A stretch of DNA of 64,000 nt. Origin: a virus. The notes below the pieces were generated by a model, which searched no databases, was not told the DNA's origin, and worked only from the letters and a program-made list of their open reading frames with translations. Position numbers and translations under genes: made by a program. Within the stretch, counting starts at the first letter, position 1. Each line of letters starts with the position of its first letter. Location of the stretch: IMG/VR virus record IMGVR_UViG_3300021479_000014, positions 1 through 64,000 of that record. The stretch is one strand, 5' to 3'. Shown here piece by piece: positions 16,466 through 56,821 of this stretch.

Positions 16466-18036
16466 TGGGCTTCAGTCGTCTGTTGAGCTGGTAAACGCTG
16501 TCTTGCACGCCTATTTTCAATTTCAGTAAGCAAATCTACCACTGCTTCTTCCATTGAATCAATCTTTGTTCCACCACTTTTACCCAGTGGACCCATCTTA
16601 AATGATGGCTTCTTTGCTCCTGGTGCGCCACCAGCTCCTTCTTCAACAGGAGGCTTATATTTAGCCAATTTTTCGTAATCAAGTATAAGCGGAGATGGAA
16701 AAAGTACCTTCAAATCGTTGAAATTGTCTGCTGCCCACTCGTAAATATCAGCTTTATTGTCATCATCAGAGACCGGAAGCAGAATTTCAAGCATAGAAAG
16801 TATGGCGCGCAACTTAACGTTGGCAACTTTAATCTTTTCTGAGTCAGGTTCAGTCAAAAGTGATGGCCAAATCGCAATAAAGTGATTTGACCATTCGGTA
16901 AAAGCCTGATTGTAGCTCTTTTTCTTGTATTCGTCAGGAAAATCGTTTTGAACTGTTTCGTAAAAATCAATATTCCAAGCTCTATGTTGCACTATTCTAG
17001 TGAAAAAATTGTATAAACCCTGCATAGATTCACGTAATTTATCAATATAACGTGCTATCGCTTTGGCATCTTCCTCACCTTCAGCAAAGGCAACCGCTAA
17101 TGTTTCAGAATTTACTAATTTTGCTGGCATACCTGCTGCTGCTGCTATATTTTCAAGTATGTTTTTTCGTGCTGTGCGTGATGAGTTGTCTATATTCTGT
17201 AAATTTAATGATTCGACCTCTTCGTCAATACCGATATTCATTACAGAGCCGGTCATTGCCTCCTTAAGCATACCACGCTTAATGCCAGCAATGCGCTGCA
17301 TAACGTCATTTATGATAGAACCAGGCGCTTTTAGCTTTGCAATAATTACACCAGCTTTTTTCGTCACTAAATCATCAGTAATCATCGACTGTAAGAATGA
17401 TTTAAGTGGAAAAAGCGCGCGCTGATATACAGAGCGGCCAACATAACCCCAAGCTGAAGTAGTATAATCAAGATAAATTGGATCTTCATTCTGATAAATA
17501 CTAGTTCTGTTAAAATGATAAGATTGCCCTTGTACAGAAATGGTTAAAGGCTTCAAAAATGTTGGAGAATTTGGATTTTGATTTAAAACTAAGCTTCCTG
17601 CTGTATTTAATGGATCAAAAACGTTGAAAGTAATTGGTTTATTGGCTAAACTTGCAAAATCTAATGGTTTTGTAGGATCTTCATTTGGAATCATTAACGC
17701 TACAGATGCAATTCCATAAATTCTTGCTAATCTTACCACATTTGCAATAATTCTATCAGCATCTATCTTTTGCCATTCATCTGTAAATGCTTTTCTAACG
17801 CGATCTTCTGGAGAACCAGGTATATTTATCTTTCTTCCTTGTGATTGCGCTAATTGTACTGGAACATCTACAAGTTTTGCACCATATGGATGATAAGAAT
17901 AGATGAGTTTACATAGCTCATAGGACGCACTCGATCCCAGCTCTATGTTATCAGCCATCAAAATTTGCATCAAAGGGGTGCCTAGCGGCGAACCGCCAAA
18001 CAATCCCCCTTGACTTTCTACGACAGCTTCTGCCAT
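16462..18036 (-). CDS. portal protein (DUF1073 type)
   Basis: 524 aa; ARIYG, WGYVGRSVYQR and IAAAAGMPAKL motifs. Confidence 0.85.
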   Translation of the reverse strand: MAEAVVESQGGLFGGSPLGTPLMQILMADNIELGSSASYELCKLIYSYHPYGAKLVDVPVQLAQSQGRKINIPGSPEDRVRKAFTDEWQKIDADRIIANVVRLARIYGIASVALMIPNEDPTKPLDFASLANKPITFNVFDPLNTAGSLVLNQNPNSPTFLKPLTISVQGQSYHFNRTSIYQNEDPIYLDYTTSAWGYVGRSVYQRALFPLKSFLQSMITDDLVTKKAGVIIAKLKAPGSIINDVMQRIAGIKRGMLKEAMTGSVMNIGIDEEVESLNLQNIDNSSRTARKNILENIAAAAGMPAKLVNSETLAVAFAEGEEDAKAIARYIDKLRESMQGLYNFFTRIVQHRAWNIDFYETVQNDFPDEYKKKSYNQAFTEWSNHFIAIWPSLLTEPDSEKIKVANVKLRAILSMLEILLPVSDDDNKADIYEWAADNFNDLKVLFPSPLILDYEKLAKYKPPVEEGAGGAPGAKKPSFKMGPLGKSGGTKIDSMEEAVVDLLTEIENRRARQRLPAQQTTEAQ

Positions 18037-18138
18037 TTTCTTCTTGTGCTGAAAAAAGATACGCGGAGGAGGCTGTCAGTCCCCCTTGCCAGTTCACAGA
18101 GTGTTAATTCACCCCGCCGCGCACCATCCCAGTATTAC

Positions 18139-18939
18139 TTACCGACGAGTGGGATCAACTTCCGGCGACCCACCTGGGCGCTGTGGCGGTCGACCACCAA
18201 CTCCACCAGCCGGCGGGGTCGGACGACCAGGAGGAAGCGGTTGACCTGCCGTCGGAGGGCGAACGCCAGGACGACCAGGCGCCATCGGAGGTTGTGGATG
18301 TTCACCTTCGCCGCCTTCACCAGGAGGCTCGCCAGGTTCATTCGGAGGAAGCCCCTGATCAGGATGAACAGGAATTTCCAACACGACGTAACGATAACCG
18401 ACGCCAGAAATCAAAACAAGAACGAGCGTCTTGCCGGCTGGGATAGTTGGCGGAAGTGGCGGCCAAATTGTGCCAGGAGGCGGATCAACCGGAGGAAGTT
18501 CAGGTTCACCAGGCTGCGGAGGCGCGATAGGATGCGTTGGATCGACAGGCCAAGCAGGAATATGGCCTTCATCCACACCGTAGTCTGGATCAACAGGACG
18601 CCCACCCCAACCACCAGGAGGACGATGACCAGGTCGCTCAGGAAATTCTGGACGTTCCCAAGAACCCGGAGGACGATTGCCTGGACGACCAGGACGACCA
18701 GGAAGTCCCTGATCAGGATAGCCGCCGCCACCAACACCCCAATCCGGGTCAACAGGACGACCAGGACGCGACGGGAGATGACCAGGACGGTCGCCTACGC
18801 CACCCCAACCCGGAAGATGACCAGGACGTTCGGGGCGCCCAGGAAGACCTTGGCCAGGTCTGCCACCTTCATCAATACCGTAGTCAGGATCCACCGGACG
18901 GCCCTCCCTATCGAGGAACTGAATATATGCAAAGGGCAT
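18139..18939 (-). CDS. Pro/Gly-rich repeat protein
   Basis: GGAG RBS; three RPVDPD[YW]G repeats, GC-rich. Confidence 0.7.
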   Translation of the reverse strand: MPFAYIQFLDREGRPVDPDYGIDEGGRPGQGLPGRPERPGHLPGWGGVGDRPGHLPSRPGRPVDPDWGVGGGGYPDQGLPGRPGRPGNRPPGSWERPEFPERPGHRPPGGWGGRPVDPDYGVDEGHIPAWPVDPTHPIAPPQPGEPELPPVDPPPGTIWPPLPPTIPAGKTLVLVLISGVGYRYVVLEIPVHPDQGLPPNEPGEPPGEGGEGEHPQPPMAPGRPGVRPPTAGQPLPPGRPTPPAGGVGGRPPQRPGGSPEVDPTRR

Positions 18940-19098
18940 TCATCTTCTCCATTTGGTTTCTGTTGTTAGTCTGGATCTTCAAACACATAGTGTCCCAGAC
19001 AAAAGTGCAGGGTGGTATCTGATCGACGGGAGAGCCGAGACGCACTCAATTGTCGCTAGTTGGGAGGTCTTCACGACAATTTATTACCCTGCTGAAGC

Positions 19099-20311: not shown

Positions 20312-21823
20312 CTACCACAAATCCGGATCACCTAGTGCGCTACAAACACCATAACAGAACGCATCTACTAAGTCATCTTCTTGATCTGGTACGCCAACAT
20401 TGAAAGTATGAACCTGCTTAATCAAATGATTCGCGTGACGTTGTTTAAAATCAACAGTCTTACGATAGGCAAGTTCTGAATATTTTACTTTGCCAACGGA
20501 AACGTAGCCACTAGCGTTAAGAGCACGCGGCTGTTTGCCAAGTTGTACCAACTTAGCGTCAATACCAGTTGCCAAAAGGTTGCGTCGATTACATTGTTGC
20601 AAAAGGACAATGCCAGAGCCCTTTTCTTCAATTAATGTACCGATTGACCCTCGCCGCGGGTGACACTCTCTAGCAAATTCTTCAAGTCTCAAATAAACAT
20701 TTGGAATCCAATCTATCAATAAATCAGAAGGAACCTGCAATATATCATAATCTAAAATTGTTAAAGGACGATCTTGAATGTATTGATTTAATGCCCAATA
20801 TATTACGGCTGTTGCGTCATGTTTTGCATCAGCTTTAATGCCAGTATCAATAGTGGCAAAGACGCAATCACACCACTCAGGAAAGTTGACAGGAGATCCG
20901 TCAACAAGTAAGTCCTTTTCGAGGAAAAACGTACCACCAGGCGGCTGCGGATTTTGTTGATAGAGAGACTCAAAATCTCGAATCCCAACGATTGTGCGTT
21001 TTCGTTCAAGAGCAGCAGCATCTTCCCAAGATGGCCAGAGCGCCTCACCTACGCCGCGCCCCAAAGGATCATCTGCCACTGCAAAAGCCGGAAGGCATAT
21101 AACTGTCCATTGATCTCCACCCTTCTCCATTTCATGGAGAAGCATTCCACCTAAATCTTCCAAATGCCATCTTGTTTGAATCAAAATAATTCTAGCATCA
21201 GGTTTAAGTCTTGTAACCAAATCACTTTTGTACCATTCATACGTTTTCGCCCTAACGGTTTCTGACTCAGCATCTTCTCGTGATTTAACAGGATCATCAA
21301 TGATTGCGAGATCAGCTCTTCGTCCTGTAATAGCCCCACCGACGCCCGCCGCAAAGTACTCACCGCCGTTCGTAGTTTCCCATCTTGAAGCGGCCCTATT
21401 TGATTCATCTAAAGAATATCCTAAAGTGGATGCTTTCAATAATATCTTGTTGCGCACCCTGCGGCCAAAACGTTCCGCAAGTTCACCTGTATGTGAGCAA
21501 CCTATCACGCTTGAGCGTGGAAATTGTTTAAACCAAAATGGAGGAAGTAGTTCGCTGGTATAAGTAGATTTGGCGCTCCCAGGAGGAGCAAATATCATCA
21601 AACGATCTATTTCGCCAGATACTACTTTTTCTAACGCTTTGATAATAAGTCTATGGTGCGCTGCTGGTTTGAAACCAAAATCACCAACACACTCTGAACA
21701 CCACGCCAATAAATTAGTTTGACATTTACGGCGCCAAGCAGCAGTCCTAAGCTTAAAAACCTGAGCACGACGGATACGATCGAACTGGGATGGATGCTGC
21801 GGTGGCTCAAATCCCATGCTCAT
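20312..21823 (-). CDS. terL: terminase large subunit
   Basis: APPGSAKS Walker A, GRRADLAIIDDP Walker B, QTRWH, C-terminal nuclease DDLVDA. Confidence 0.95.
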   Translation of the reverse strand: MSMGFEPPQHPSQFDRIRRAQVFKLRTAAWRRKCQTNLLAWCSECVGDFGFKPAAHHRLIIKALEKVVSGEIDRLMIFAPPGSAKSTYTSELLPPFWFKQFPRSSVIGCSHTGELAERFGRRVRNKILLKASTLGYSLDESNRAASRWETTNGGEYFAAGVGGAITGRRADLAIIDDPVKSREDAESETVRAKTYEWYKSDLVTRLKPDARIILIQTRWHLEDLGGMLLHEMEKGGDQWTVICLPAFAVADDPLGRGVGEALWPSWEDAAALERKRTIVGIRDFESLYQQNPQPPGGTFFLEKDLLVDGSPVNFPEWCDCVFATIDTGIKADAKHDATAVIYWALNQYIQDRPLTILDYDILQVPSDLLIDWIPNVYLRLEEFARECHPRRGSIGTLIEEKGSGIVLLQQCNRRNLLATGIDAKLVQLGKQPRALNASGYVSVGKVKYSELAYRKTVDFKQRHANHLIKQVHTFNVGVPDQEDDLVDAFCYGVCSALGDPDLW

Positions 21824-26394: not shown

Positions 26395-26600
26395 ATGATG
26401 CGCAACATGATGACCATATTTGGGTGACCGTGAGAGGTGAATCTTGGGCTATAGCTGAGATCTACAAAAGTTGGATATGGTTATGGAGAGGTTATTGGCC
26501 AAACATGGAAGTTGCGCTCCTAGATACAAATGGCATTGACTGGGTTGGATATTGTGATAGGGCTGTCTTTATGATGTATGGTGATACTATTGTGTGGTAA
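26388..26600 (+). CDS. hypothetical Trp-rich protein
   Basis: GGAG RBS before ATG 26388. Confidence 0.45.
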   Translation: MVDDAQHDDHIWVTVRGESWAIAEIYKSWIWLWRGYWPNMEVALLDTNGIDWVGYCDRAVFMMYGDTIVW

Positions 26601-26664
26601 TTTTACTGGTGAAGGTTGTAGAATTATGGTTCGTGGATTTTTGACGCTAGTGCAGAGACGGTGG

Positions 26665-26996
26665 CCACCAAGTGGTGGGCGCAAACAGGTGAATTTCTGA
26701 TTCTCCGAAAGCGTCTCCGACGCTTCTGGCTATCCCTAGATCGTCTAGGAAGCTCTAGGAGCTGGGGCTTTTTCTAGGGGCACGGACATAGCGGGCAACG
26801 ACCGAGGGCTGATGGACGGCCTTCCTAATGCGTTTAAACGCATATCGCCAAGGTTAGGCGACAATCGTCGCCGAGGGCGACTGGCCCTATTTATTAGATG
26901 CCCATAGATGTTTTTTAGGGGCAAAACCATTAAAATAATTCTAGACTTTCCTACGCGGTAGGAGTAGCTTGTTTCTTGTCGGACGGCGATGTCGCC
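26665..26996. repeat. array of short inverted repeats
   Basis: At least 9 palindromes, e.g. AAGCGTC-TCC-GACGCTT, ATGCGTTTAAACGCAT, GTCGCC-GAG-GGCGAC. Confidence 0.75.
26942..26970 (+). promoter_or_regulatory. sigma70-type promoter with UP element and palindromic spacer
   Basis: TAGACT-17-TAGCTT, AT-rich upstream, TCCTAC-GCG-GTAGGA in spacer. Confidence 0.65.
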
Positions 26997-27032
26997 CTCC
27001 GCTAAAACGCCCCGAGCGGGCAGGAGAGAAAA

Positions 27033-27494
27033 ATGGGTAAGGTATCGTTAGACGAGCGCATTGCGCTCGCCGTGTCCCAGGCGCTTGCGCTTAAGACACG
27101 CAAGGCTCGCGATCCGGTCGTTCCGGTGGACGAGAGCGAGTGGGACCGCGTTGCGCGTGTCCTGCGTATGCAGAAGGGCATGCGTGGTATGCTCTTGCGG
27201 CATATCGTGCGCAAGGGTCCGGGCGTGTACACGTTCGAGGGCATACATGCGGTGGAGGGTCTCGAGTGGATCTCGGCGCCTAATGTCGCTGCGTGCCTAA
27301 CGCATATCGCCTGGAAGATGCAGGGCGGTTCGGGGTCGGGCACGGTCGCCCCGTGTGGGTACACCCTCGCCGTCGATGGGACGGGTGTTAACGTGCGGGC
27401 AATGCTCGCCCGCGTTAAGCCCGCGAAAAAGCCGGTGGCTCGCAAGGCGAAGGCTTTGCCCGCTCCGGTGGCGAAGAACACAGACGCCGCGTAA
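27033..27494 (+). CDS. putative winged-helix regulator, candidate immediate-early protein
   Basis: AGGAG RBS, own promoter and terminator, GC-rich; OmpR-like helix NVAACLTHIAWKM plus wing GYTLAV; ends -DAA. Confidence 0.65.
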   Translation: MGKVSLDERIALAVSQALALKTRKARDPVVPVDESEWDRVARVLRMQKGMRGMLLRHIVRKGPGVYTFEGIHAVEGLEWISAPNVAACLTHIAWKMQGGSGSGTVAPCGYTLAVDGTGVNVRAMLARVKPAKKPVARKAKALPAPVAKNTDAA

Positions 27495-27499
27495 AAACT

Positions 27500-27525
27500 G
27501 GGGAGGCGCAAGCCTCCCCTCTTTT
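27500..27525 (+). terminator. intrinsic terminator
   Basis: GGGGAGGC-GCAA-GCCTCCCC-TCTTTT. Confidence 0.8.
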
Positions 27526-27558
27526 CCCCTCGTTTCTCACTAGTCAGGAGTCATCAAA

Positions 27559-27687
27559 ATGGCACACATCTACTCGGGAGTTAACTCCCAGCATCGCGAC
27601 CCCATCGATCACCTCGAAGATGGGTGGGTGGTCTACGTCAGCGACGACCAGGTCCAGATCCTCATCATTATCGTGGAGGTGGAGTGA
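27559..27687 (+). CDS. 42-aa hypothetical protein
   Basis: AGGAG RBS; followed by coupled 18-aa ORF 27687-27743. Confidence 0.5.
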   Translation: MAHIYSGVNSQHRDPIDHLEDGWVVYVSDDQVQILIIIVEVE

Positions 27688-27747
27688 TGGCCAAACTCCA
27701 GCGCTTATGGCGGCGCATCATGGGTCAAAGACCATACTTCTAAGATG

Positions 27748-27771
27748 GGGTGGCGCAAGCCACCCTTTTTT
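27748..27771 (+). terminator. intrinsic terminator
   Basis: GGGTGGC-GCAA-GCCACCC-TTTTTT. Confidence 0.85.
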
Positions 27772-27779
27772 ATCAACGT

Positions 27780-28276
27780 GGTGATAGATGATATTTGGCT
27801 TTTGATGCGCACCAATTTGCGTGTCACCATGCCATATGTCATTTATCATTTCACCAATGGTGAGAGATAATTTTTGACTGATGATATATGATATGGATGA
27901 TATTTGGCGTGATATGTTCTCGGTTTGTTCTCAGCTGTCATATGTGTTCTTGATCTGTTCTTTATGATTATCATTTGTGGTGACTTCTGATTTTCCGCTT
28001 TTGGCTTTGGTTGCGCACCAAGCATTATGATGTTATCATTGTCTACTTTGTTCTAAAATAAAGCAGACATAAAAAGCATAACGATATCAATGACTTAGGT
28101 GCATCAGTCTACTTTGTCCGCTTTGTATGCTTATCATACCGTCCTACATGTATGATTTAAAATACAGCTATACCAGGTCAGCAAAGATTTATCATTTGGT
28201 GGAGCACTTTCCCCAAGCATTTCAGTTGGTTATGCCTGAAACTTAATCTAAAACATTAAGCAGACAATTTACAGAT
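27780..28276. other. non-coding AT-rich region, candidate origin
   Basis: No ORF; GTCTACTTTGT x2 and AAGCAGACA x2; lies just downstream of helicase gene. Confidence 0.4.
27916..27960. promoter_or_regulatory. two alphaproteobacterial LexA boxes
   Basis: GTTC-N7-GTTC at 27916-27930 and 27946-27960. Confidence 0.65.
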
Positions 28277-30368: not shown

Positions 30369-30611
30369 ATGATAAATGAACACCCAGAAACTGCTAGACA
30401 AAGAGCAGCGCGTATCTGGCGCAATCATCAAATTCAACAAATGGGTATTCAACAGCCAGAGCCAACTATACCTGAAGTGACATTGAATGAGATTGAGGCG
30501 CGATTCAGAAAAGAAATGAGAGATGCGCTCCAACAACACAATAAGAACAAATCATTACTCCAATATTTGATATTGAAACTACGTCAGAGGAAGAGTAAAG
30601 ATGACAAGTAA
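30369..30611 (+). CDS. hypothetical protein
   Basis: ORF overlapping small terminase start. Confidence 0.45.
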   Translation: MINEHPETARQRAARIWRNHQIQQMGIQQPEPTIPEVTLNEIEARFRKEMRDALQQHNKNKSLLQYLILKLRQRKSKDDK

Positions 30612-31245
30612 TGCGTATCATCCTGATGATCAACCAGCCATGTTGGCTGAAGATTGGGAGCGTATGAAATTTGAGCAGCGCCAACAAGCTGAACAAGAAC
30701 GTATCAGAAAAGCTCAACAAGATGAGATCAATCGTGAACTCCATAAAGAACAAATCAAAATAAAGGACAAAATCAATTATACTGAAGAATTGGCACAAGA
30801 GATATGTGAACGTATTGCTGCTGGTGAGTTGCTCATTAATATTTGCAAAGATGAGCACATGCCCACTGTGCGCCGCTGTAATGTGTGGCTGAAGCAAAAT
30901 GACGACTTCAGTATTCTATATAAAGACTCAATCAATGATCGCTTATCCATATTTGAAGAGCAGGTGATCAGCATCGCTGATGATGCAGCGCATGATTTTA
31001 GAGAAATAGTGAAGAATGGAAAGACCATCAAAACGCAAGATGCTGAGGTGATTGCCAGAGCCAAGTTGCGCGTCGAAGTGAGATTCAGGCATCTCAAAGC
31101 TGGTAGGCCTGGCAAATGGGGCGATACTTCAACTCTCATCACTAAGAGTGAGGATGAGGCTGCCATTGACAATATGACCACAGAAGAAATGGAAAAGAAG
31201 ATTGCTGATCTGGAAGAAAAAGACAATATCATCAAAGTGGTATGA
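30601..31245 (+). CDS. terS: terminase small subunit (Sf6 gp1-like)
   Basis: YTEELAQEICERIAAGELL..IC....MP....W...F..Y, IADD, AKLRVE.R...P.KWGD. Confidence 0.8.
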   Translation: MTSNAYHPDDQPAMLAEDWERMKFEQRQQAEQERIRKAQQDEINRELHKEQIKIKDKINYTEELAQEICERIAAGELLINICKDEHMPTVRRCNVWLKQNDDFSILYKDSINDRLSIFEEQVISIADDAAHDFREIVKNGKTIKTQDAEVIARAKLRVEVRFRHLKAGRPGKWGDTSTLITKSEDEAAIDNMTTEEMEKKIADLEEKDNIIKVV

Positions 31246-34413: not shown

Positions 34414-34476
34414 GATCGAAACAGCCAGTGCGATTGGCTGTCCTAGCGTTTGGCGCTAGCTGATGAGATCAGTAAC
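34414..34476 (+). ncRNA. type II hammerhead ribozyme
   Basis: GATC-GAAA-stem III-GTC-stem I-CTGATGA-GATC; predicted cleavage after 34442. Confidence 0.92.
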
Positions 34477-34488
34477 AGGAGAAGTAAA

Positions 34489-34908
34489 ATGAAGATAAAT
34501 CTTAACATACATATCATGTCGTGGATGTGTCGCGAACATGACATCATCGATCCAGATCTTATCCAACTAAAGAACAATCACGAACAAATGATTGTGGATA
34601 TTTCAGAAAGGATATCAATAAGATTTGATTATCCTCTTTCACATTCTGTATTGCTCCAATTTGGTGGCAAGAAGCCGTGGAGATTATCAGATCTAATTGA
34701 TGTTGTCTGCGCCGGATATGTGAAGATATATGACGAGGAAGATGAAACCAGAACGCTTCCAGCTAGTGCTCCGTTGGATTCGATTCTGGTCAATCGTCCT
34801 AAAACTGACGGCAAGCACGGCATCTGGGGACACATCCTAAATGACTTGTATATTGAAGGAATATACAAAGGATCAGACGGTGTTTGGTTGCTACAAATGG
34901 GATCATAA
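34489..34908 (+). CDS. hypothetical protein
   Basis: RBS after ribozyme; FDYPL..Y.KIY.EE..G.HGIWGH...DL.IE. Confidence 0.7.
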   Translation: MKINLNIHIMSWMCREHDIIDPDLIQLKNNHEQMIVDISERISIRFDYPLSHSVLLQFGGKKPWRLSDLIDVVCAGYVKIYDEEDETRTLPASAPLDSILVNRPKTDGKHGIWGHILNDLYIEGIYKGSDGVWLLQMGS

Positions 34909-34975
34909 GACCGAAAGGGTGGCGCCACAAGCGCCATTCTCCTAGCGTTAGGCGCTAGCTGACGAGGTCAGTAAC
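34909..34975 (+). ncRNA. type II hammerhead ribozyme
   Basis: GACC-GAAA-stem III-CTC-stem I-CTGACGA-GGTC; predicted cleavage after 34941. Confidence 0.92.
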
Positions 34976-34987
34976 AGGAGAACTAAA

Positions 34988-35209
34988 ATGGTAAAAGCAG
35001 TATATTGGTATGGACCAGATAAAACTGGTCACGACGACTTTGGTATGCCATACGGCGATTTTATGTTTGATGGCAAAACAAAGATGGGACCTTGGGCCTG
35101 CATGAGTAGCTATAGCTGGGAGAAACACGGCTGTGGCAAACTCGGAACTGGCTTTGGCCAGAAGTACAAGAGACAGGCTGATGGCCGTTGGCTTAAGGTG
35201 GAGGGTTAA
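34988..35209 (+). CDS. hypothetical protein
   Basis: DGKTKMGPWACM..LGTGFGQKY motif. Confidence 0.7.
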   Translation: MVKAVYWYGPDKTGHDDFGMPYGDFMFDGKTKMGPWACMSSYSWEKHGCGKLGTGFGQKYKRQADGRWLKVEG

Positions 35210-35560
35210 ATGGCGCGCATCAGTGTAAGACGTGGATCTGAAGGTCCAGAACACGATCCGTATTCATATACGGAGATCACGTTCTACTTCACAGATTCTG
35301 AGCGATCAAAAGTCGTTTATCATAGAGGATTAGGTGAGTGGCTTAAATATGGTGGTCGAACATACGACGCTAGTGACAGTTGGTTACCATCGTCAATTGA
35401 CTATCTATTTAAGCACATAACTGGACTCTCAGTTCGTAGAGCCGAAGAGATTCCAGAGATGCTGTTTGAGCGTTCCATGCGTAAATACACTAAAGCTGAG
35501 CGCTGGGCCATCATGGAATGCATCGAAGCCGATGAGGCCATGCTCAGAAACTGCTATTGA
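35210..35560 (+). CDS. hypothetical protein
   Basis: GGAGG RBS. Confidence 0.65.
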   Translation: MARISVRRGSEGPEHDPYSYTEITFYFTDSERSKVVYHRGLGEWLKYGGRTYDASDSWLPSSIDYLFKHITGLSVRRAEEIPEMLFERSMRKYTKAERWAIMECIEADEAMLRNCY

Positions 35561-35564
35561 AATA

Positions 35565-35614
35565 ATTGAACTTTGGAGCGCAGCAATGCGCTCCGCTTTT
35601 AGGCAATTTTGCCA
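35565..35614 (+). repeat. repeated intergenic hairpin motif, copy 1
   Basis: ATTGAACTT-hairpin-CTTTTAGGCAATTTTGCCA. Confidence 0.75.
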
Positions 35615-35630
35615 GACTGAGGAGAATAAA

Positions 35631-35930
35631 ATGAGGTACGTTGTTATCAATAGAGCATGTGATGGAACACATATTTCGTCACATGCTACGTTTGAGAAAG
35701 CACAAAAGCGTGTGGAAGAAATGGTTGGCAGAAGAGAAGGGCCATTCAAACTTAATCAACCCTATTGTTCTGATTGGGGTAACGTTCTCACAATCGAGGA
35801 GCGCCCAGGCAATTGGACTGCGAATACTGAGCGGCGCGTTTCCGAGGCTTTTGATGCTAACGAATGTGGTTTTGCAACAAAGGCTCAAATTAAATTGTTG
35901 CATGAAAAGGGTTGGCTGACAGGAGAGTAA
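35631..35930 (+). CDS. hypothetical protein
   Basis: GAGGAG RBS before ATG 35631. Confidence 0.65.
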   Translation: MRYVVINRACDGTHISSHATFEKAQKRVEEMVGRREGPFKLNQPYCSDWGNVLTIEERPGNWTANTERRVSEAFDANECGFATKAQIKLLHEKGWLTGE

Positions 35931-36125
35931 ATGACAGAAAATCAAGAGTTTAGTATTTGGATGTCAAGGGTAGAATTTTACCTTGAATCTATGGTAAAGA
36001 AGTCGTTGACACTATTGAAGTCATATGACTATCGCGATGACTTCAATAAAGGTTTTCTACCAGAAGAAACAGCAACTCGTGTAATTCAAAGGAGCAGAAA
36101 ATGGCAAAGAAAGACCCGTGGATAA
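35931..36125 (+). CDS. hypothetical protein
   Basis: RBS. Confidence 0.6.
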   Translation: MTENQEFSIWMSRVEFYLESMVKKSLTLLKSYDYRDDFNKGFLPEETATRVIQRSRKWQRKTRG

Positions 36126-36400
36126 TATGCCCTGTCTGTGAAGGAGAGGGAAAGACAGTCAATCCAAATATTGACGCGAATGGATTGACTGCGGAAGACT
36201 TCAATGAAGACCCAGACTTCAGAGAAGACTATATGAGCGGCGTATATGACATTACGTGCGCTGCATGTGGAGGTCAACGCGTCATCAAGAAGCAACGCAT
36301 GAAAGAGCTGGCGCGAAATGCCGAAAGTCGCCGTCTGGCTGCTCGTGAAGATGGCGATTATGAAGGCTATTGCGGCGCTGGTGATTGGAGATATGGATAA
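36101..36400 (+). CDS. Zn-finger hypothetical protein
   Basis: CPVCEGEG..YDITCAACGG. Confidence 0.7.
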   Translation: MAKKDPWIICPVCEGEGKTVNPNIDANGLTAEDFNEDPDFREDYMSGVYDITCAACGGQRVIKKQRMKELARNAESRRLAAREDGDYEGYCGAGDWRYG

Positions 36401-36579
36401 TGCATATCCTCCTTACCATAATTGTTATCATTGTACTAGTGGTTGTTTTTAGCAACCTAAATCAACAAGGAGTGATAACAGCTTGGAAAGGTCCAAATAA
36501 CAATCTTGGTTGTATACCATTATTGTTAGTCTTTATATTTACCATTTGGGCCTTATGCCAATTGCCTGTAATACATTGA
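36400..36579 (+). CDS. small two-TM membrane protein
   Basis: Two hydrophobic segments. Confidence 0.55.
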   Translation: MHILLTIIVIIVLVVVFSNLNQQGVITAWKGPNNNLGCIPLLLVFIFTIWALCQLPVIH

Positions 36580-36624
36580 ACTTAATGGCAGGTGCGATCT
36601 GCCATCTTTTAGGCAATTTTGCCA
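36575..36624 (+). repeat. repeated intergenic hairpin motif, copy 2
   Basis: Same flanks as copy 1, different stem sequence. Confidence 0.75.
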
Positions 36625-36639
36625 AACTAGGAGAATAAA

Positions 36640-36897
36640 ATGGATAATCCTACAGTAGTGGTAGAAATAGAAGTGGATGCCGTACAAGAGGCCATCCAAA
36701 CAATCCGAAAGATCAATAGCAAGATTGCTTGGGTGCTGGAAAATAATCCGCCATACAAGCAGAAGGAGCTTGATGATCTGAAGTATCGCAACGCCAATCT
36801 TACACTGGTTGAGTTGCGCCTCACTAAAGCTCTGAGCGATAGGGCTTTGGCCAATCAAGCCAAGGGCAATGTCGTTAAGATGGGAGGCAAGAAATGA
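36640..36897 (+). CDS. hypothetical protein
   Basis: AGGAG RBS. Confidence 0.65.
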   Translation: MDNPTVVVEIEVDAVQEAIQTIRKINSKIAWVLENNPPYKQKELDDLKYRNANLTLVELRLTKALSDRALANQAKGNVVKMGGKK

Positions 36898-37139
36898 GAA
36901 AGGCTCTATTGGCAGAATATAAAGTCAAGCCAAATGGCACAAAACTCCTTGACGATTTCAGAGGAGACAGAATTTATGGTAATTGTTATATTATCATAAA
37001 GGCTGGCGTAGAAATCTACGAGGTTATTACCTCAACGTTGGGTGATTGGTGTAACTGCCCAGCCGGACAACATGAGAAGAAATGCAAGCATCTATCTATG
37101 GTGTATGATTTCAAAGAGAAGGAAGAAAAGGTCATATGA
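36894..37139 (+). CDS. SWIM zinc-finger protein
   Basis: WCNCPA....CKH. Confidence 0.7.
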   Translation: MRKALLAEYKVKPNGTKLLDDFRGDRIYGNCYIIIKAGVEIYEVITSTLGDWCNCPAGQHEKKCKHLSMVYDFKEKEEKVI

Positions 37140-37348
37140 AATACAATGCGACGTGTACGCTTCAAGCAGTACATATCAAAACTGGCAAAGTGATAGATAT
37201 TTGTCAGTTTGATTCTTCTCCTCTTGAGATAGAAGCATCTTCACAAGAAGACGCAGACGAAAAATGGTCCAGACGCTGCCTCATCGAGGCAATGTGCTCT
37301 GGTTCTGATATAGCCAGAAAAGAATACAAGCAAGGGAAATGGAAATGA
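37136..37348 (+). CDS. hypothetical protein
   Basis: Coupled ORF. Confidence 0.55.
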   Translation: MKYNATCTLQAVHIKTGKVIDICQFDSSPLEIEASSQEDADEKWSRRCLIEAMCSGSDIARKEYKQGKWK

Positions 37349-37593
37349 ATAAACAAGACAAAGCCAGGTATCCTTTTATACGTGCCTGGGGCTACCAACT
37401 TGGTTCTTTTCAATATTATATCGAGAGTGAAATTGAAAGAGCCATTCGAGAAAATGCTCCTGAGCGTGCCATTTATAAAAGTGGTGCAGGAGGGTGGCGA
37501 ACTATAGATGACTGCAAGGATGAAGCAGTCAAACAACAGTGTATTGATTGGGTAGAAGCACATAAGAACGATCAATACGTTTCTGACGAATAA
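37345..37593 (+). CDS. hypothetical protein
   Basis: IRAWG..LGS..YYI..A...NAP..AIY motif. Confidence 0.65.
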   Translation: MNKQDKARYPFIRAWGYQLGSFQYYIESEIERAIRENAPERAIYKSGAGGWRTIDDCKDEAVKQQCIDWVEAHKNDQYVSDE

Positions 37594-37660
37594 GACCGAA
37601 ACTGGCCGCAGTGATGCGCCCAGTCGTTGCGTAATGCGCAGCCTGACGATGGTCAGTAAC
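37594..37660 (+). ncRNA. type II hammerhead ribozyme (extra U before stem II)
   Basis: GACC-GAAA-CTGG..CCAG-TC-GTTGCG/CGCAGC-CTGACGA-T-GGTC; predicted cleavage after 37625. Confidence 0.88.
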
Positions 37661-56018: not shown

Positions 56019-56821
56019 GACTAGCTTTCAGTTTGATGTGCGCATATGTGGAACGTTTTGGTAAACTACGGGAGAGTTTTCATTATAAAATAGGTGATCC
56101 AATTACTTCTTTTACCAAAAATGCGTTGACGAATCCACCATTTCAAAGATATTATTATTATGATTTTAATACTCCAGATTGGAATGTAGAATGGAAATGT
56201 TACAATCCATCAGAAGGATTAATTGATTTTTTCTCTATTCGCCAAGATGCTTTGGACATGTCACCACATGCAGATTTCATCTTTATGCTAGATGATGAAT
56301 TTGTATTCAAAGAAGGATCAACAGAAGTTATAAATCAATGTTGCAGATATTTATATGATAACCCAGATTGTGGCGCCATATATCTTGCTGGTAATTTTGG
56401 TGGCGAAGGTGATCATCACGGAGATGAAATATATATTACAAATAATAAACTTTTGAGTTTAAACCGCGGTATCGTGTTGCGCAACAAGCCTGTGAATATG
56501 GACAACCGTCTTCATGGATTAGGTTGGGCAGACGAAACTGTTATTGGCTTTACTAACTTGATACAAGGATATTATCTTGCCAGAAGGATGCATGTACCAA
56601 TTGAACATGATAGTATAAATTGGCTAAGTGAAGATAATAAAAATTTGAATTACAATACGAATTACATTATAAATGAAGGAATTGGAGCTGGAATCAACAG
56701 AACAATAGGAAGATGGAATAAACTTGATGTTTGGCCAGAAAATATATTTAACCTATATCGTCAAGCGGCGATGTTGAAAGGGTTCGTGCCTAAGTACGAT
56801 GTTGACGGGAGTGTACTATGA
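56015..56821 (+). CDS. putative GT-A glycosyltransferase-like protein
   Basis: SIRQDAL...ADFIFMLDDEFVF; GWADE. Confidence 0.55.
   Translation: MRLAFSLMCAYVERFGKLRESFHYKIGDPITSFTKNALTNPPFQRYYYYDFNTPDWNVEWKCYNPSEGLIDFFSIRQDALDMSPHADFIFMLDDEFVFKEGSTEVINQCCRYLYDNPDCGAIYLAGNFGGEGDHHGDEIYITNNKLLSLNRGIVLRNKPVNMDNRLHGLGWADETVIGFTNLIQGYYLARRMHVPIEHDSINWLSEDNKNLNYNTNYIINEGIGAGINRTIGRWNKLDVWPENIFNLYRQAAMLKGFVPKYDVDGSVL

Follow-up and report, generated by a model that had tools for sequence, protein, structure and literature searches.

An uncultured soil phage with a genome-wide TGR/YCA lattice and one coding hole in it

Why would one gene of a phage genome, together with the non-coding DNA on either side of it, lack a three-base word that is common elsewhere in the same genome? 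We took up this question for an uncultured soil phage represented by IMG/VR record IMGVR_UViG_3300021479_000014, of which positions 1 to 64,000 were analysed as one window. Between 26813 and 27536 of this window neither TGA nor TCA occurs on either strand, and the word-free stretch takes in a conserved leader, the gene for a winged-helix protein of 153 amino acids (aa) and an intrinsic terminator; we refer to this unit as the cassette. An earlier reading of the letters, here called the original prediction, held that the phage modifies a base in TGA/TCA context and keeps its first regulator, a promoter-gene-terminator unit, free of that modification. We find that the purge of TGA/TCA is maintained by selection on synonymous sites, and that it is best described as a coding hole in a genome-wide lattice formed by the words TGA, TGG, TCA and CCA (TGR/YCA). 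That this is a selected hole in a lattice belonging to the DNA we regard as highly probable. The source genome is a single contig of 80,609 bp with a CheckV completeness of 100%, and the stretch is present in the soil metagenomes of several studies.

The absence of the two words, which had been scanned by hand, is real. Base composition predicts 17.7 TGA or TCA for the stretch and a first-order Markov model 12.9, whereas none was observed. Between the last TGA, which begins at 26810, and the next TCA, which begins at 27537, lies a gap of 727 bp; the second-longest gap of the window is 182 bp. The described return of TCA was verified as well, with one copy at 27537 and three more within 20 bp (27544, 27551 and 27554), and so was the presence of other trinucleotides: all 31 other classes occur in the stretch, the scarcest being ACT/AGT (n = 6). 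A genome-wide scan of all 3- and 4-mer classes found about ten gaps of comparable Markov expectation for other words, and a simple Poisson P therefore overstates the case.

A codon model does not account for the depletion, as permutation shows. When synonymous codons were permuted within the 153-codon gene, which leaves both the encoded protein and the overall codon usage unchanged, 5.5 TGA/TCA were expected in the coding sequence (CDS) of the cassette, which carries none (P = 3e-4). The hypothesis was set on this window first, and orthologous cassettes of other metagenomes were tested afterwards; three of these proved depleted by the same permutation, with 3 words against 8.8 expected, 1 against 7.0 and 2 against 7.6 (P = 0.003, 0.00035 and 0.002). 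The purged lineages are only 72-78% identical in nucleotide sequence and 112-117 of their approximately 155 codons vary among lineages, and limiting the permutation to the varying codons gave the same outcome. TCA/TGA is the sole class among 32 trinucleotide classes with z of about -3 in all four lineages, and both TGA and TCA are depleted when taken singly.

The choice of codons depends on what follows them. Codons for Leu, Val, Ile and Phe that precede a codon starting with A end in A or T in 18 of 22 cases, as against 30 of 121 elsewhere, where 91 of 121 end in G or C (pooled Fisher, 6e-7). Codons ending in T account for 2 of 77 before GAN or CAN and for 110 of 545 elsewhere (pooled Fisher, 2.5e-5), and the context effect is carried by different codon positions in different lineages. 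Taken together, the permutation tests and the context-dependent codon choice mean that neither GC content nor codon usage accounts for the gap; because both strands are affected, the depletion acts on double-stranded DNA. An observed/expected (O/E) comparison of k-mers likewise upholds the depletion, subject to the caveat of the comparable gaps for other words: the cassette has the lowest TGA/TCA in the genome (O/E 0-0.1, the next lowest value being 0.55) and is also the low extreme in G001 and G002, the two related records with long contigs. The excess of TAA/TTA in the cassette is a forced by-product of TGA/TCA avoidance. A footprint of C-to-T editing (TCA to TTA) was considered as the sole cause and rejected, since T-ending codons are avoided before GAN and CAN and cannot be removed synonymously by deamination.

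The orthologous cassettes bear out the depletion in the three cases given above; in a fifth orthologue, L006 (71% aa identity, 61% GC), they do not. L006 holds 15 TGA/TCA against 11.9 expected and its codon-context pattern is reversed. In the protein tree it stands outside the clade of the four purged lineages (support 88/93), and the purge probably arose once and was then maintained through much synonymous turnover. A strain variant with 97% identity carries a single TGA, located at the Asp-Glu junction where two relatives also have one. Only five distinct relatives were recovered from IMG/VR and metagenome scans. The conserved leader pattern matched 46 contigs, with real similarity in three known records only, and no match at the DNA level turned up in the INPHARED phage collection.

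Outside the cassette, synonymous choice adds and spaces TGR/YCA words, whereas inside it TGA/TCA are removed. For this comparison the null was obtained by permuting synonymous codons in every gene. Outside the cassette the lattice words have a mean spacing of 12.3 bp, and the coefficient of variation (CV) of their gaps is 0.614, compared with 0.784±0.010 under permutation (z -17 to -21). There are 17 gaps longer than 40 bp where the null gives 149±11, and 17 gaps longer than 34 bp in sense-oriented coding DNA where it gives 232±11; the words are also over-represented (6447 against 6068). Each of them alone is spaced randomly (CV about 1), and evenness appears only in the union of the four. In sense-oriented genes, z is -7.8 for sense TGR by itself, -5.4 for sense YCA by itself and -17.8 for the two combined; that either strand counts even in such genes places the signal in double-stranded DNA, not RNA. 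Among 574 degenerate 3-mer classes TGR shows the biggest drop in CV, and the control words AGR/YCT, GAR/YTC and TGY/RCA show no evenness. Neighbouring words lie 3 to 34 bp apart without a favoured phase, the gap histogram drops sharply at 33-34 bp, and no flanking-base preference was found at the lattice words. The same lattice, with the same hole at the cassette, is present in G001 and G002, whereas 30 unrelated viral contigs, a T4 segment included, show no lattice (z mean -0.28, sd 1.2).

The cassette is the main hole in this lattice and the only one that takes in a protein-coding gene. Of the 30 gaps in the genome that exceed 38 bp, nine lie in the cassette and nearly all others are intergenic. 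The word-free stretch retains 18 TGG/CCA, separated by gaps of 43-107 bp, and 8 of the 12 in the CDS were avoidable. The purge is thus specific to TGA/TCA, and the hole in the lattice is one of low density, not of complete absence.

These features say something of whatever reads the words. The reader acts on double-stranded DNA and recognises three bases only, because the words are interchangeable, either strand counts and the flanks are irrelevant. The idea of a word read along the phage DNA therefore stands, in that the lattice shows some reader, but the genome-wide word is TGR/YCA and not TGA/TCA only. With three-base specificity, indifference to strand and flanks, a hard maximum spacing and one purged gene, an enzyme-like reader fits better than a classical sequence-specific regulator. 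To our knowledge there is no published counterpart for the even genome-wide spacing of a target word, or for a single gene purged of a word. Our best guess, and a tentative one, is that the reader is a covalent DNA mark made by the phage at TGR; there is also a real possibility, well short of an even chance, that the reader is of a kind outside all of the explanations weighed below.

The gene within the hole (27033-27494, + strand) encodes a basic protein (isoelectric point, pI, 10.2) with an N-terminal helix, a winged-helix domain at about residues 34-129 and a disordered tail rich in Lys, Ala and Pro (pI 11.3) that ends in -DAA. Its reported winged-helix character is supported by structure prediction. 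The AlphaFold2 model (predicted local distance difference test 75.5 overall, 84-94 in the core) places helices at 36-43, 49-61 and 82-96 and strands at 110-115 and 122-127, a predicted helix-turn-helix core followed by a beta-hairpin wing. All of the top 50 VIA-align matches are winged-helix domains aligned over residues 34-129 (Z 5.5-7.4), ScpB, OmpR/PhoB, Fur/PerR and MarR types included, a Z range that, on the model, supports the inference of a winged-helix fold but not of a function. No named sequence family was found in Pfam, NCBIfam or the PDB sequences, PHROGs gave one weak match (E = 0.021), Foldseek on the model returned nothing with E < 0.8, and a tblastn search of the genome brought up no paralogue (best E = 0.11). 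The family is very small: there are 18 homologues, all metagenomic hypothetical proteins, and 12 cluster representatives among 1.8 billion proteins. A winged helix joined to a basic tail resembles the architecture of linker histone H1, which we take as a resemblance only. The C-termini of the homologues are nearly all -AA (DAA or NAA, with VA in two) and recall degradation tags of the ssrA type.

Several explanations were weighed against this evidence. One is that the gap is a functionless by-product, the cassette being a GC-rich moron from elsewhere and the gap reflecting donor composition, codon usage or chance. The cassette is indeed an autonomous unit with terminators on both sides and a GC content of 60-65% in a genome of 40% (59.5% against 40.5% for the word-free stretch itself); about ten comparable gaps exist for other words, and as the four purged lineages are one clade the origin may be a single event. 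This explanation is nevertheless largely refuted, and we consider it very improbable. Permutation that keeps protein and codon usage rejects it in four lineages, codon choice is context-dependent, contrary to a GC-rich preference, the other GC-rich genes of the genome have a normal 26-35 TGA/TCA per kb, the equally GC-rich L006 orthologue holds its 15 sites, and at 22-28% nucleotide divergence sites would be expected to return. We find it similarly hard to credit that the protection is at the level of RNA, with the messenger avoiding UGA and UCA to resist a sequence-specific endoribonuclease in the way that ACA-less mRNAs resist MazF. The word desert does run from just past one terminator to the next, mRNA interferases that read three bases are known (PMC5408214, PMC9102682), and two soil studies have RNA-library contigs that match part of the CDS (27246-27481 and 27323-27481), with most of the surrounding 2-kb stretch uncovered. 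These contigs are a weak hint of cassette expression and give neither an expression level nor transcript ends. Such a mechanism would, however, need the simultaneous avoidance of two different RNA words; the genome-wide signal is blind to strand (z -5 to -8 for a single strand, -18 for the union), which points to DNA; and UAA and UUA are enriched, so the target is not U-N-A.

Two further explanations place the reader on DNA. According to one, which we think unlikely, TCA on either strand is the target of a host or competitor enzyme that prefers three bases, and the first-acting gene avoids this target, much as T5- and T7-like phages keep restriction sites out of their leading regions. TCA is missing on both strands, T4 endonuclease IV prefers 5'-TCA in single-stranded DNA (PMC1635256, PMC2095790), and motif-free leading regions decide restriction sensitivity (PMC12455610). 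The cassette is 3 kb away from an Sf6-like small terminase gene, so a packaging end could be near, and the avoidance of T-ending codons before GAN goes beyond C-to-T editing, so the avoidance is not a mutational footprint. The rest of the genome, however, enriches and evenly spaces the same words, the opposite of nuclease-target avoidance; avoidance of a host nuclease in first-entering DNA, which the original prediction had offered as its alternative, accordingly fits poorly. The genome has no homologue of T4 denB, local avoidance protects nothing unless entry is stepwise, and the contig is classed as linear in IMG/VR, has no end repeats and breaks within a long operon. The other explanation, possible although we lean against it, is that a phage DNA-binding protein, perhaps the winged-helix product itself, uses TGR words as docking sites from which it coats or compacts the genome. 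The lattice would then keep the coat continuous, dense tracts beside the cassette would nucleate it, and promoters and the protein's own gene would stay accessible and site-free. The fold with its Lys/Ala/Pro-rich tail would suit this role, nearly all other long gaps are intergenic, and immediately downstream of the hole TGR/YCA reaches its highest density in the genome (27662-27861, both strands; 32 sites in 200 bp, where the genome averages 16.1, sd 3.1), a dense tract lying beside the cassette in G001 and G002 as well; phi29 p6 provides the precedent of an early protein that organises a genome (PMC10899789). Context-free three-base specificity would be unusual for a winged helix, however, spacings of 3 to 34 bp without a preferred phase are unlike a regular protein array, and a search of the genome found no protein of HU/IHF type. 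Avoidance of -35-like TTGACA, avoidance of a CRISPR protospacer adjacent motif and primase sites were also considered and rejected; none has supporting evidence, and each leaves the lattice unexplained.

The covalent mark remains the reading that we favour. Under it the phage would write a mark at TGR, with TGA preferred, and its genome would have evolved to leave no unmarked window of at least about 35 bp. The transcription unit of a basic, linker-histone-like winged-helix DNA-binding protein would be kept nearly unmarked, as would short regulatory gaps, and this might let ordinary protein-DNA recognition and gene expression proceed on incoming DNA; the winged-helix product could then act on the marked DNA. 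A more specific version, which we put forward as rather unlikely but worth stating, is that the roughly 35-bp ruler corresponds approximately to the window needed by a CRISPR effector or another DNA-scanning defence, and that one unmarked bootstrap gene encodes the reader or licenser of the mark.

The genome offers a plausible source of such a mark. A candidate cluster for nucleotide and DNA modification lies on the + strand at 49588-56821, in the replication module, as annotated with Pfam, PHROGs and NCBIfam. It encodes a MazZ-like dATP/dGTP diphosphohydrolase domain, a short-chain dehydrogenase, an FAD/NAD oxidoreductase, a ThyX-like enzyme (scoring just below the NCBIfam equivalog cut-off) and a HAD phosphatase, together with a trio in which a Methyltransf_24 protein is flanked by two GT-A-like proteins. 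The two flanking proteins are unnamed, and their ESM Atlas structure and feature neighbours are GT2/GT-A glycosyltransferases of mostly viral clusters; the Methyltransf_24 protein has a partial match only to a PHROG annotated as DNA methyltransferase. Two viral-type GT-A glycosyltransferases, an S-adenosylmethionine (SAM) methyltransferase and nucleotide-pool enzymes make DNA modification plausible, and the accessory genes of motif-directed hypermodification, namely glycosyltransferases and nucleotide-pool enzymes in the replication module, are thus present.

Several observations weigh against a mark, in addition to the unpurged L006 orthologue. The sequence-specific DNA-writing families PF00145, PF01555, PF02086, PF01702 and PF12851 gave no match in the 80.6-kb genome, although control genomes were matched, and no PurZ (PF00709), Dam methyltransferase, TGT/DpdA or TET/JBP is recognisable in it; a Pfam search of 20 small early proteins yielded nothing relevant. 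Modification at TGA/TCA is therefore plausible from the enzyme cluster but is not accompanied by any recognisable DNA-modifying family. Strong avoidance of 6-bp palindromes persists in the genome (summed O/E about 0.74) and extends, to a similar degree, to the four of them with a lattice word inside, a comparison of low power (n = 4). If TGG is marked as well as TGA, the cassette is not mark-free, since its 18 TGG/CCA would keep their marks, and the claim of a modification-free unit fails to that extent. An unmarked hole of 730 bp would also be a weak spot for a protective mark. Lastly, a scan of the leader for sigma-70 promoters found none, and the -35 element proposed there, TAGACT, is not conserved and reads GTTGCT in relatives; the promoter of the original prediction is thus not upheld, and neither is its immediate-early timing. 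Nor is there any indication that a mark impedes host RNA polymerase; all other genes lie in the lattice and must likewise be transcribed.

If this reading holds, sequence statistics alone can reveal a three-base word that is read or marked on phage DNA without any recognisable enzyme, the test being an even spacing of the word under a synonymous-codon null together with a purged hole. Uncultured phages could then be screened for new DNA modifications or genome-coating systems, and for the gene that has to act ahead of such a system. Any reader, whether the footprint of a defence, that of a protein or an enzyme, has to account for the hard upper limit of about 34 bp, which is a quantitative constraint. 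The lattice pattern recurs in related soil phages and may be a general and so far undescribed phenomenon. A TGR mark with a ruler, if true, would be a new mode of whole-genome protection that is visible from sequence alone.

The borders of the hole coincide with structural elements of the cassette, which occupies the same position in all relatives. On its 5' side a terminator-like hairpin with a T-run (26750-26776, + strand; hairpin 26751-26763, T-rich tail) ends a + strand cluster of small upstream genes and would insulate the cassette; the T-run is kept in five of five aligned lineages, and the stem varies in sequence but retains its pairing. The 5' border of the word-free stretch is a conserved hairpin of 8 predicted base pairs (26804-26824, + strand) that holds the last TGA (26810-26812). 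Its block GGCTGATGGACGG is identical across the four purged lineages, and in the relatives the border falls at the matching relative place, at -223 to -238. The non-coding leader that follows (26825-27032, + strand) has a mean column identity of 74% in five lineages, and its blocks are unique within the genome. It contains short hairpins, of which those just 5' of the ribosome-binding site show compensatory changes; the consensus fold as a whole has no net covariation support in the five-lineage alignment. At the Rfam gathering threshold no RNA family was found in the window, nor in particular any hammerhead ribozyme at 34414-37654, and near the cassette Rfam gave weak matches only, at chance level. 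Third-position variation in the codon alignment shows that the + frame is the coding one, and an antisense open reading frame (ORF) of 169 aa was rejected as an artefact of high GC and missing TCA. An exact 13-nt repeat, AACGCATATCGCC, occurs both in the leader (26837-26849) and in the coding region (27299-27311), where chance would give about 0.03 in the 2.1-kb region searched.

At the 3' border, the terminator assigned to the unit was verified. It lies at 27500-27527 (+ strand) and consists of an 8-bp GC-rich stem (27500-27519, predicted on both strands) with a GCAA loop and a T-rich tail, 5' of the first TCA at 27537; the stem varies in sequence and its pairing is kept in all lineages. Beyond it a small acidic ORF of 42 aa (27559-27687, + strand), conserved in L001 and L002, sits between two terminators and outside the purged unit, and its TGA/TCA density is normal to high. 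The second terminator (27747-27771, + strand; repeat D5) has the same GCAA loop as the first. The densest TGR/YCA tract then runs into iteron-like direct repeats at 27778-28021 (families D1-D3 and D8), which comprise 16-27 nt families built around GATGATAT/TGGC and two copies of a 22-mer ending in GCGCACCAA. These repeats occupy an AT-rich convergent gap that adjoins a DUF5906 primase-helicase gene, and they are a candidate origin or protein-loading site. Boxes of the form GTTC-N7-GTTC at 27916-27960 are a hint that the host may be an alphaproteobacterium.

Other features of the genome were noted alongside. The Sf6-like small terminase gene (30601-31245) and a T4-type large terminase gene (20312-21823) are 9 kb apart on opposite strands; the former has the highest TGA/TCA density of all genes (79 per kb), and its position may point to a headful packaging start nearby. 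A second GC-rich island (18010-18969, + strand, 59% GC) carries a 319-aa gene without a Pfam match inside a - strand structural operon, and its TGA/TCA density is normal. In the genome outside 26600-27600, TGG/CCA exceeds its expectation under a maximal-order Markov model by more than any other trinucleotide (z +17.7), and GGG/CCC falls far short of it (z -13). Among 4-mers CATG is avoided most (446 observed, 737 expected), and CTGCAG, CCCGGG and GGGCCC are absent, 6-bp palindromes being depleted as a class. CTAG is under-represented (190 against approximately 290 expected), and clusters of five CTAG are found at only two places, 26647-26774 and 64300-64383, both GC-rich and non-coding. No TGR/YCA gap in the genome is longer than the one around the second of these (139 bp, 64279-64418), and the two clusters may represent a shared class of regulatory element.

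Among the known systems closest to the present one, phage SPO1 has TF1, a protein that prefers hydroxymethyluracil DNA. The morons of lambdoid phages are autonomous promoter-gene-terminator units of deviant base composition, and the cassette is likewise an insulated single-gene unit with a GC content far from that of its genome; it differs in lying at the same place in all relatives and in the negative promoter scan, and a word purge is not a property of morons. The ACA-less mRNAs that resist MazF (PMC9102682, PMC5408214) share with the cassette a three-base word missing from one transcript, whereas here both strands are affected and a genome-wide lattice exists, both pointing to DNA. In the first-step-transfer region of T5 and the early injected regions of Autographiviridae (PMC12455610) a word is similarly missing from a putatively early unit and common elsewhere. 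The word of the present phage, however, has three bases instead of 6-7, and outside the cassette it is neither simply tolerated nor avoided but positively selected, in excess of the null and evenly spaced. Like p6 of phi29 (PMC10899789), the cassette protein would be a small, basic, early DNA-binding protein of abundant type, and it is a candidate for genome-wide action, for which the dense tracts beside the cassette could serve as nucleation sites; p6 reads the shape of DNA every 24 bp and not a three-base word, and the modelled fold of the cassette protein is instead a winged helix with a basic tail.

Phage hypermodification systems provide the remaining comparison. Short-word marks include dPreQ0 at GA in the Pseudomonas phage iggy and at GA/GGC in CAjan (PMC10484667, PMC7544227), hypermodified thymidine at TG/TC in M6, ViI and phi W-14 (PMC6449724), and a GpC-directed mark in which 5-hydroxymethylcytosine is then glycosylated (10.1101/2023.12.21.572611). 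The present case differs in that no writer (DpdA, C5 methyltransferase or TET) is recognisable and that its mark is a predicted one. The likeness is closest to the TG/TC context (PMC6449724), for TGA/TCA has the form T-S-A and the lattice word starts with TG. Marking in these systems follows replication and targets words of 2-3 bases, whichever strand they are on; as here, the glycosyltransferase and nucleotide-pool genes lie in the replication module.

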